Source: an uncultured Desulfobacter sp.
Lineage (GTDB): Bacteria; Desulfobacterota; Desulfobacteria; Desulfobacterales; Desulfobacteraceae
Direction: 5' to 3'
Assembly: GCA_963665095.1 (NCBI GenBank)
Contig: OY762069.1
Location: 4,672,001 to 4,736,000, forward strand
DNA length: 64,000 nt
The stretch's first letter is position 1. The number at the start of each line of letters is the position of its first letter. Shown one piece after another: positions 23,025 to 25,897 of this stretch. The notes under the pieces were generated by a model, which did not search any database, was not told where the DNA came from, and saw nothing but the letters and a program-made list of their open reading frames with translations. The position numbers and the translations under genes are program-made.

Positions 23025-23309
23025 ATGGATTAATACCTGTCCCTTAAATTTTTATGGTAAAAAAGCGTTGTGCCAAATATTTGGAACCTGTTTAAATATC
23101 ATGAAAATGCCTGGATTATCAAGCCCGCATTACAGGGGAAACAGGGTCTTGGCACGCAAAGATTCTTAACAGTCTTTAAATTCCGCTTTGCTGAAGAAAA
23201 AGAAACAGGGTTGAAAAGCGCGCATCGTTCTTATATGTCTATATATTATTTCATAAAAGTCATGTAGTTCAACCCATAACCGTTCAATTTTCGATATGGA
23301 TTGTCATCA

Positions 23310-25712
23310 ATGAAATCAGCAGCAAAGGTTCTTGTTCAGATTTGTATAGTACTCCTGCTAGGAATCACGCCTGGATATGCCTCCCAGGATAAGGCCCGCG
23401 CCCTCAAGGTTATTTCCGAATTCAGTCATGCCGGGGGCCGCATCGGCACCTATCACGCCCTGCTTGTGGGGATCAATGACTACAAAGACCCGGAAATCCC
23501 TGATCTTGAGACCCCTGTGAGCGACGTCAATGAGATGGCATCCCTGCTGGAGAAAAAGTACGGGTTCCAGGTGAGCCGGCTCATCAACAGCAAGGCCTCA
23601 AAAGATGGTATTTATAATGCTTTAAGACACCTTGTGGGCACGGCAAAAAAAGAAGATTCCGTGCTGATTTATTATGCCGGGCACGGAGGGCACGACAAGC
23701 TTGTCGGCGGGGGATACTGGGTACCCTGGGATGCCAGGCATAGTAATACGGGATCCTATTTTGATAATGTACTGACCCAAAAACTGATTGCCGGCATGAA
23801 GGCCCGGCACGTACTTCTTATTTCCGACTCCTGTTATTCCGGCACCCTGTTCGGCAAGGCAAGGGCCCTTCCCCCGGACATCACGGACAAATACTACCTG
23901 TCGCTTTTCAACGAAAAAAGCCGGTGGGGCATGACCTCGGGCAATTTCACCCCGGTGGCGGACGGCGGTACCGACGGCCACAGCGTATTTGCCTACCAGC
24001 TGATCAAGGCGTTAAGGAAAAACAGCAGCCCCTACCTGTCTACCCAGCAATTGTACACAGGATTTGCCCATATTGTGGCCAACAACTCGGAACAGAGCCC
24101 CATGTGCCGCCCCATAAAAAACACCGGGGACCAGGGCGGTGAATTTATTTTTATCATGGCCGGGGGGCCTGGTCCTGACCCGGCTGCCCCGGCACCCCCG
24201 GCCGGACAGAAACAGGCCTGGCTGTCAGTGGAGGCCAACGTGGCCAATGCCGATGTCCTGGTGGACGGGCAGTCTGTGGGCAAAACACCCTTAAGGGATT
24301 ACGAGCTTGTCCCGGGTGATCACAGGATTACAGTGGTAAGCCGGGGCTACGACAATTATGAAAGAAACTATACCTTTCGTTCCAGCCGGTCCAGGGACGT
24401 CAACGTGGTGCTGGTCAAAGCCTTGCCGGTTAAAGGCAGTCTCGCTGTTGATACCGTGCCCGAGGATGCGGTCGTTAAAATCATGAACATCCGGGAAAAA
24501 TACCAGAGGGGAATAGAACTTGCTCCGGGCAAATACCATGTGCAGGTTCTTGCGCCTGGCTATGATACCCGAGACCTGTGGGCAGAAGTGGGCCGGGGCG
24601 AGGATAAAATCATCACCGTGCATCTGGAAAAGGCGGAAGAAAAACAGCCTGTTCCCCAAAAGCCCACAGCGTCATCCGGCAGTACCGCACCTGCCCAAAA
24701 GCCGGAAACGTCATCCGGCAGTGCCGCACCGTCTTCCGGGTCATTCAGCAGCCAGCTGGACGACCTTGCGGCCAGAAAAGCCAAATGGGAAGCCTGGCAG
24801 TCCCACATGGAAGCGGATTATAATAAACTCAAAGCCCTGGAAAACGACAACACCATCCCGGTAAAGCAGCGCAAACAGTTTTTTAAGGCCTTTTTGTCCA
24901 CCTATGGGGCGGATAATGTTTACAGCAGCCGGGATGAGGCCCTTCGCAAGGCCGCAACCTCGGCTATGGAACTGATGGACATATTGGGCAAGCCGTTTGT
25001 GGAGCCGGTAACCGGCATGGAATTCGTGTGGGTGCCGGGCGGCTGCTATCAGATGGGCGATACCTTCGGGGATGGGGAAGACAATGAAAAGCCGGTGCAT
25101 GAGGTGTGCATAGACGGCTTCTGGATGGGCAAATACGAGGTAACCCAGGCTCAGTACCGGACAGTGACGGGTCAGAACCCGTCCGAATTCAAAGGGGATC
25201 GAAATCCTGTGGAGCAGGTCAGCTGGGATGATGCTAAATCCTTTATATCCAAACTGAACCGTCAGACAGGTAAAACTTTTGCATTACCCACGGAAGCCCA
25301 GTGGGAATATGCCGCCAGAAGCGGAGGAAAGAAAGAGAAATATGCCGGGGGCGGCAATGTGGACCAGGTGGCCTGGTATAAAGGCAACAGTGGAGGGAAA
25401 ACCCATCAGGTCGGCACAAAAATTCCCAATGGCCTGGGCATATATGACATGAGCGGTAATGTCTATGAGTGGTGCGAAGATGTGTATGACCAAGGCGGAT
25501 ATAATAAACATTCAAAGAATAATCCTTTAATTACGTCCGGTTCATCCTACCGCGTGATCCGTGGTGGCAGTTGGGGCAATTACCCTAGGAACGTGCGGGC
25601 GGCCGGCCGGAGCAGGTATTCGGCTGATTTCCGCCTCAGCTTCATGGGGTTCCGCGGCAGCTACGTAGGGTTCCGCCTCTGCCTTGTCCCTGAGTCCGGC
25701 AGGAAACAGTAA
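23310..25712 (+). CDS. Predicted exported caspase (peptidase C14)-PEGA-FGE-sulfatase/C-type-lectin protein; probable DGR target
   Basis: Signal-peptide-like N-terminus; ALLVGINDY, YYAGHG and SDSCYSG (His/Cys dyad); PEGA-like VDGQSVGKTPL; FGE motifs GKYEVTQAQY, LPTEAQWEYAARSG, NGLGIYDMSGNVYEW, RVIRGGSW. Confidence 0.9.
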   Translation: MKSAAKVLVQICIVLLLGITPGYASQDKARALKVISEFSHAGGRIGTYHALLVGINDYKDPEIPDLETPVSDVNEMASLLEKKYGFQVSRLINSKASKDGIYNALRHLVGTAKKEDSVLIYYAGHGGHDKLVGGGYWVPWDARHSNTGSYFDNVLTQKLIAGMKARHVLLISDSCYSGTLFGKARALPPDITDKYYLSLFNEKSRWGMTSGNFTPVADGGTDGHSVFAYQLIKALRKNSSPYLSTQQLYTGFAHIVANNSEQSPMCRPIKNTGDQGGEFIFIMAGGPGPDPAAPAPPAGQKQAWLSVEANVANADVLVDGQSVGKTPLRDYELVPGDHRITVVSRGYDNYERNYTFRSSRSRDVNVVLVKALPVKGSLAVDTVPEDAVVKIMNIREKYQRGIELAPGKYHVQVLAPGYDTRDLWAEVGRGEDKIITVHLEKAEEKQPVPQKPTASSGSTAPAQKPETSSGSAAPSSGSFSSQLDDLAARKAKWEAWQSHMEADYNKLKALENDNTIPVKQRKQFFKAFLSTYGADNVYSSRDEALRKAATSAMELMDILGKPFVEPVTGMEFVWVPGGCYQMGDTFGDGEDNEKPVHEVCIDGFWMGKYEVTQAQYRTVTGQNPSEFKGDRNPVEQVSWDDAKSFISKLNRQTGKTFALPTEAQWEYAARSGGKKEKYAGGGNVDQVAWYKGNSGGKTHQVGTKIPNGLGIYDMSGNVYEWCEDVYDQGGYNKHSKNNPLITSGSSYRVIRGGSWGNYPRNVRAAGRSRYSADFRLSFMGFRGSYVGFRLCLVPESGRKQ
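24655..24732 (+). repeat. Two tandem 39-bp repeats encoding a Pro/Ser-rich linker
   Basis: CCCAAAAGCCCACAGCGTCATCCGGCAGTACCGCACCTG followed by CCCAAAAGCCGGAAACGTCATCCGGCAGTGCCGCACCGT. Confidence 0.85.
25545..25712 (+). other. Putative DGR variable region (VR) and 3' IMH-like tail
   Basis: Codons at usual Asn template positions are NNC/NNT (TAC, ATC, GGC-AAT-TAC, AAC, GGC, AGC, TAT, TTC, CTC-AGC-TTC, GGC-AGC-TAC) between invariant scaffold codons. Confidence 0.7.
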
Positions 25713-25729: not shown

Positions 25730-25805
25730 GGGCCTATGATCCGGCAGGGGCGCATGGCCACGAAGGCGGCAGCCGTGGCCATGCCGCCTGCCGGATCATA
25801 GGCCC
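25730..25805. other. Long GC-rich hairpin/cruciform after the VR (DGR target-recognition-like)
   Basis: 19-bp perfect outer stem (25730-48/25787-805) and 11-bp inner stem (25752-62/25774-84); no U-tract. Confidence 0.75.
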
Positions 25806-25816
25806 TGGGAGGGTGG

Positions 25817-25897
25817 TGGGGTCACATCTTGATCAGTGATTTAATAACTCTGTTTCATACTCAACCCCGACTAATCACTAATCAAGATGTGACCCCA
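25817..25897. repeat. REP-like inverted repeat (TGGGGTCA family)
   Basis: 25-bp arms TGGGGTCACATCTTGATCAGTGATT / AATCACTAATCAAGATGTGACCCCA, one mismatch. Confidence 0.8.

Follow-up and report, generated by a model that had tools for sequence, protein, structure and literature searches.

What can account for a variable region of DGR type at the end of a gene whose genome holds neither a template nor an RT to rewrite it? The question is raised by the 3' end of an 800-aa gene in the window, by which we mean the whole stretch of 64,000 nucleotides that was analysed, where an initial annotation made from the letters alone had pointed to a peptide with the codon pattern of a DGR variable region (VR; the template repeat is abbreviated TR below). 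This peptide and its codon pattern are present at 25545-25712, far beyond chance. The reading that we consider probable is that an adenine-biased VR lies here in a genome without TR or RT, that an HRDC-type DGR, whose core 327 kb away no longer has its RT and template, likely once used it as a remote target, and that the target is now likely frozen. The genome assembly under study (G000) is a single contig, C1, of 6.9 Mb with a completeness of 97.4%, from which plasmids and phages may be missing; positions prefixed C1 refer to this contig and all others to the window, in which the following features are concerned:

5' leader, 23197..23309, plus strand, common to three paralogous loci of G000 according to blastn of the module against the genome
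target gene, 23310..25712, plus strand, an open frame of 800 aa with a signal-peptide-like start (by eye) and caspase/peptidase C14, PEGA and FGE-sulfatase/CLec domains
VR of CLec1 type, 25553..25667, plus strand, with variable positions seen from 25557 to 25667
duplication copy 1, 25629..25649, plus strand, part of an in-frame 21-bp tandem; its first 12 nt match, at 11 of 12, the start of the IMH-like end lying 42 nt further on
duplication copy 2, 25650..25670, plus strand, differing from copy 1 at 5 positions
IMH-like end, 25668..25700, plus strand, an invariant 3' stretch where the likeness to templates fades
GC-rich hairpin/cruciform, 25730..25805, plus strand, 76 nt, located after the stop codon (-43.4 kcal/mol; z -8.6; equalled by 0 of 200 shuffles)
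small inverted-repeat element, 25817..25897, no strand, 81 nt with 25-nt arms, standing where the relative G020 has its HRDC gene

The protein matches PF00656 (1e-19), PF08308 (2e-16) and PF03781 (2e-46) in Pfam, has His125 and Cys175 in its caspase/peptidase C14 domain, and begins at a start (23310) that is matched by an entry in the protein collection. The VR sits at the C-terminus of the CLec-fold domain (PF03781), for which the best match in the PDB is the Treponema DGR protein TvpA (2y3c, E 3e-29) and the structure model reaches a pLDDT of 92; we predict that the product is a peptidase of caspase type that is exported and directed by a variable tip of lectin fold. Matches of the leader to the paralogous loci begin at 23197-23202 (blastn), with identities of 86% to the wrecked core target described below (C1:5024466), 80% to an intact paralogue (C1:3227030) and 78% to a broken copy (C1:1142563). 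The neighbours of the module are genes that we named carA and glnE-like from a reading of their sequences. When the glnE loci of 23 relatives were compared with 1.5 kb on each side, carA was adjacent in three of them and a homologue of the target gene was found in none, so that the module looks inserted at the carA-glnE site. Small repeated elements lie on both sides of the module: the inverted-repeat element at its 3' side, and at its 5' side a 53-nt repeat (window 23152-23204), which has four more copies, two of them near other CLec paralogues. A place beside the replication origin, a position favoured according to the available extract of one report (PMC12875486), was considered for the target and dropped: the cumulative GC skew of C1 has its minimum at 4.68 Mb and its maximum at 1.07 Mb, but dnaA is located at 1.34 Mb, so that in G000 the origin may lie well away from dnaA, unless the skew is reversed.

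Evidence for the origin of the VR is obtained from the positions at which its alleles differ. The cognate TR of the window was never observed, and the adenine map used is that of sister templates, the real TRs of the relatives G020 and G454, which differ at 8 non-A positions in 97 nt and are the closest of the 24 TR-like sequences compared from fetched loci, the next having 16 such differences. Compared with the G020 TR, the window VR differs at 14 of 28 TR adenines and at 10 of 75 other positions (Fisher P 2e-4), and compared with the G454 TR at 17 of 31 adenines and 8 of 66 others; the VR is also poor in adenine, with 13% A vs 26% in the gene body. The conspecific comparison covered 7 of the 16 runs listed, as assembled contigs only, in which rare within-sample variants are invisible. 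Run X9 differs from the window at 19 VR positions, every one of which is an adenine of the G020 TR (28 adenines in 109 positions; P 9e-15), and 23 of its 2698 contig positions differ outside the VR, vs 19 of 109 inside. Run X13, whose allele rests on contigs of depth 2.1, has 20 differences in the VR, 16 of them at G020-TR adenines (28 adenines in 109; P 1.5e-8) and four at non-adenine positions. Both adenine counts are the same when the G454 TR is taken as the reference. The target protein cluster has four members, including P0002, P0003 and P0004; by hand translation, P0003 equals X9 and P0004 equals X13 codon for codon in the VR, which confirms the assembly rather than an independent occurrence, since these proteins may share samples with the two runs. 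The window VR is unchanged in runs X1, X4 and X6 and in protein P0002, and runs X11 and X14, which cover it partially, show no differences there.

These comparisons confirm, at the level of sequence, the DGR origin that the initial annotation had claimed: the C-terminal region is a real DGR variable region. An alternative that needs no retroelement, in which an exposed binding loop at the protein surface has simply diverged under diversifying selection, could call on P0004, which has 14 amino-acid changes in its CLec domain outside the VR (residues 596-733, vs three in the first 560 residues), perhaps the result of gene conversion with a paralogue. Such an explanation is nevertheless refuted by the adenine bias, most clearly by the X9 allele, and has to contend with the homologous hairpin and the HRDC remnant described below; its probability is negligible.

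The codon pattern had also been used to predict a template, and over 25553-25655 as many as 28 of the 30 predicted adenines are adenines in the real TR of G020 (hand count). Two of the proposed codons fared less well: the one at 25548-25550, supposed to be variable, is absent from the allele differences and is not an Asn codon in the G020 TR, and the one at 25638-25640, supposed to derive from Asn, is of Ser type in both sister templates. The peptide as quoted contained one GFR, and the 21-bp tandem duplication from which the protein has two was missed. Beyond the VR, the IMH-like end matches the G454 TR exactly over 25667-25681 and diverges after that; we infer an IMH role for 25668..25700 from its position.

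The template itself had been expected elsewhere in the genome, next to an RT and acting in trans, and on this point the assembly does not bear the expectation out. Short-word blastn of the VR against its own genome, the check that had been proposed, found no template-like copy, and neither adenine-wildcard scans with five VR pieces on both strands nor an Asn-codon scan detected a TR in G000. The G020 RT finds relatives (E 1e-25 or better) in 5 of 25 genomes of the genus, G000 not being among them, and no DGR-type RT was detected in G000, where the RVT_1 matches, 13 in number, resemble RTs of group II introns or fragments of such genes; eight of the 13 were scanned and each had TIGR04416 as its best match, under the full-length cut-off of that model. 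Group II intron RTs were considered as stand-ins and rejected, there being no template for them to copy. The assembly has no bAvd and no intact accessory gene of either kind (Avd or HRDC), its two HRDC-like stubs both being truncated, so that all three parts of a complete, active DGR, namely TR, DGR RT and accessory gene, are lacking from it. Pattern scans of genome, metagenome and viral contig collections also returned nothing, a result of little weight, as the G020 TR fits the pattern yet was not returned. Of the two terms in the label "remote or orphan" that had been given to the region, orphan is thus borne out: a VR with adenine bias against the TRs of relatives is found in a genome assembly without TR, DGR RT or Avd, as in a leftover target.

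The other term, remote, likely holds for an earlier state of the genome, since the remains of a core belonging to the same DGR family are found 327 kb away, and comprise:

wrecked core, C1:5024466-5025090, about 327 kb from the VR, with a remnant target, a hairpin arm and an HRDC stub
HRDC stub, C1:5024797-5025075, found with the G020 HRDC protein, 80% identical over 93 residues and cut after codon 93

At its start the wreck has the leader and opening codons of a gene paralogous to that of the window (86% identity), followed by a frameshift; a deletion joins the caspase region to the last (3') hairpin arm at a short shared word, and a Phd/ParE-like toxin-antitoxin pair comes after the HRDC stub. 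The intact cassette of G020 has the order CLec target, hairpin, HRDC gene, RT, TR and then a Phd/YoeB pair, and it is the RT and TR, located there between the HRDC gene and the toxin-antitoxin pair, that are missing from the wreck. The position of the core is therefore deduced from the HRDC stub, the hairpin arm and the start of the paralogous target, its TR being gone; together with the cassette-free flank of the window, the wreck would make up the anatomy expected of a remote target. The truncated HRDC gene was found on five contigs, in two versions that end alike and have the G020 protein (80%) as their closest full-length relative. One contig of 3,490,251 nt carries P0003, glnE, the truncated HRDC, the frameshifted stub of the core target and the toxin, these being assigned to a single assembly on account of equal length. 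The wreck is thus shared by a strain whose VR allele differs, so that at the core locus it predates the split of that strain.

Other relatives of the target gene are found in the same chromosome. The intact paralogue at G000:C1:3224380-3227030 (L093) shares 80% DNA identity with it over the first 1.4 kb and has a different VR scaffold; this 3.22 Mb paralogue is followed by its own hairpin and then by a truncated HRDC-like gene, with no RT or TR behind, and the locus represents a second, different DGR family, decayed, and a second orphan. Broken or split caspase/CLec genes are located at G000:C1:6447880-6449597, 3451733-3453128 and 1142563-1143138, of which the gene at 6.449 Mb has a 3' end in common with the 3.22 Mb paralogue; the second DGR may once have had this gene as a target, since decayed.

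The hairpin of the window is homologous to the one between VR and HRDC gene in the intact DGR of G020, 21 of the 30 pairs being the same, seven compensatory and two broken; the locus therefore has both an IMH-like invariant end and a hairpin/cruciform, with a putative role in homing. Likeness between the flanks of window and wreck ends a few bases past the hairpin, where the window runs into the inverted-repeat element, which has one other copy (96%) at C1:1677096-1677176. In G020 the HRDC gene starts about 30 nt past the homologous hairpin, just where the window has this element, and the 3.22 Mb paralogue, with its hairpin, truncated HRDC-like gene and missing RT, is an example of decay in place, both of which would suit a window locus that was itself once a core, from which HRDC, RT and TR were deleted behind the hairpin with the element left as a scar. 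Against this, there is no trace of HRDC behind the window hairpin, the HRDC of the matching family is located at 5.025 Mb, and the junction of hairpin and element recurs unchanged in X9 and X13, whose alleles are different; we consider a core at the window locus very unlikely.

If the window gene was instead a remote target of the core now wrecked, the RT would have copied TR RNA with errors at adenines while that core was whole, and the cDNA would have replaced the window VR in trans, guided by the IMH-like end and the hairpin. The three alleles would then likely predate the loss of the core and persist as standing variation shuffled by recombination, which is likely as the simplest reading, with the reservation that the two versions of the truncated HRDC differ at 3 of 97 residues, a divergence similar in depth to the 0.85% in the surroundings of the target, from which the origin of the alleles and the loss of the core cannot be ordered. 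In run X6, the block bearing the VR differs from the window at 1 of 1098 nt, vs 16 of 1993 in the two flanking pieces (P 0.009), a pattern that fits allele transfer and hints that it may have been recent.

The X6 block would equally suit a target whose VR is still, or occasionally, replaced in trans from an intact TR and RT, carried by a mobile element or by strains of the species outside the sample, with new alleles spreading to strains whose core is wrecked; so would the occurrence of three VR alleles among assemblies sharing the wreck, and the hairpin and IMH-like end, which are intact in X9 and X13 and identical to those of the window except for one flank base. However, no TR-like piece was found among four X9 records at 80% likeness, no RT closer than 72% identity to that of G020 among 65 matches, no full-length HRDC that exceeds 80% identity with the stub among 13 matches (the best being that of G020), and no closer TR in 161 genomes of the family or 401 of the order; X1, X4 and X6, moreover, keep the same allele. 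Five loci related to the G020 RT are distant, at 34-39%. Continued rewriting in trans is in our judgement unlikely, and adenine-biased variation between strains is no proof of an active DGR, because it occurs here among assemblies that share the wrecked core.

A likely further trace of former DGR activity is the 21-bp duplication, which adds seven codons, gives the protein its second GFR and is absent from the X9 and X13 alleles and from proteins P0003 and P0004. All five differences between its copies fall on adenines of the G454 TR (10 A in 21), and four of the five on adenines of the G020 TR (P 0.047). The copies differ at template adenines and are therefore read as separately mutagenised versions of one template segment; a DGR likely acted on the window lineage at or after the duplication, which is itself likely a retrohoming footprint. 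Its likely origin is an out-of-register event at the TTCCGC word, which is repeated, by slippage or through a misplaced cDNA junction, with the DGR rewriting one copy at or after that event. Possible routes would be slippage of the DNA with a short 3' cDNA patch added afterwards, the joining of cDNA in the wrong register, or an RT slipping back on the template. The structure model places the first GFR in the fold and gives residues 227-240 a pLDDT <50, and is biased in this respect, as its alignment rows were cut at the first GFR; in a second alignment with full-length tails the first GFR was aligned again. A literature search for a tandem duplication of this form found none among the matches listed, which is a weak negative.

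Related DGRs in other genomes vary in completeness. G454 has an HRDC-RT-TR core with CLec targets on both sides. In G020, a one-base insertion in the VR of the core target (L046:11044-11170) shifts the frame, and a cut-off VR-like copy is present at L051:9273. Locus L043 (G002:C210) is a DGR with four CLec targets around one TR, in which the RT frame, of 242 aa, is short and apparently without its central part, and one target VR has a 6-nt deletion. The near-complete genomes G016 (1 contig) and G024 (6 contigs) have two VR-like matches each, no TR match to the query used and no match to the G020 RT in the genus search. VR-like targets at L039 (G016), L047 (G024) and L048 (G003) match the TRs of G006 or G002 and have no TR match in their own genomes; in G016, two targets lie <1 kb apart where G006 has its cassette.

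Comparison with known systems, based on available extracts of the cited papers, places the window target closest to those of Treponema denticola, which has HRDC-type DGRs, remote targets and "leftover" targets in isolates without RT and TR (PMC4891356). Common to both are a CLec1 VR in an FGE-sulfatase domain, as in TvpA, HRDC instead of Avd, targets distant from the core, and the survival of targets in genomes that lack RT and TR, where they still differ from the TRs of other isolates mainly at adenines (PMC4891356). By analogy, the window target works like a T. denticola leftover target, a class already known (PMC4891356), and is not part of an active DGR here. In contrast with T. denticola, the window target is not a simple lipoprotein but has caspase C14 and PEGA domains and a signal-peptide-like start; no sampled strain of its species keeps a core, and its VR has the 7-codon duplication.

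In the extracts of Wu et al. 2018, Architecture C (HRDC) DGRs are described with category 'b' targets and remote targets >100 kb away, and length differences are reported in 25 of 372 DGRs, 14 of them in frame, with slippage at AAC repeats proposed (PMC5758913). The window resembles Architecture C in VR class, type of accessory gene and distance class (327 kb), and its indel, beside AAC codons, likewise has a length divisible by three; but its DGR is incomplete, and the indel consists of 21 bp copied in tandem, the two halves having mutated separately, a form different from AAC slippage (PMC5758913). In Bordetella phage BPP-1, a hairpin/cruciform after the VR is needed for homing (PMC3240598); a GC-rich inverted repeat behind the VR, kept in structure rather than in sequence, is shared with this system (PMC3240598), whereas the window stem has about 30 pairs instead of 7-10, has no 4-nt GRNA loop, is chromosomal and comes without Avd. 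CLec targets with caspase-like domains also occur in proposed conflict systems as clade 5 sensors (Doré et al. 2024, PMC10907252), with which the window protein shares a CLec tip fused to a caspase-like peptidase domain (PMC10907252); it differs from them, as far as the extract describes them, in that it looks exported and stands alone between carA and glnE, with no adjacent NTPase, vWA or adaptor genes.

In conclusion, the codon pattern alone is enough to recognise a VR and to predict most of its template, including at loci which, according to the extract available, are overlooked by surveys requiring a nearby RT (PMC8144416). Of most value are the comparison of alleles, the wreck common to strains with different alleles and the separate mutation of the two copies, the duplication being a small natural record of a cDNA or an RT slipping register. 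Targets without a matching TR are found in G016 and G024 too, so that gain and loss of the DGR core can be studied in this genus. We also put forward, as a tentative and rather doubtful idea, that a species without DGR machinery may keep a ready-made library of tip alleles, varying its tip by recombination or through a visiting template, and that the duplication may represent out-of-register retrohoming that lengthened the loop by seven residues; if this is true, DGRs could change the length of a binding loop as well as its sequence.
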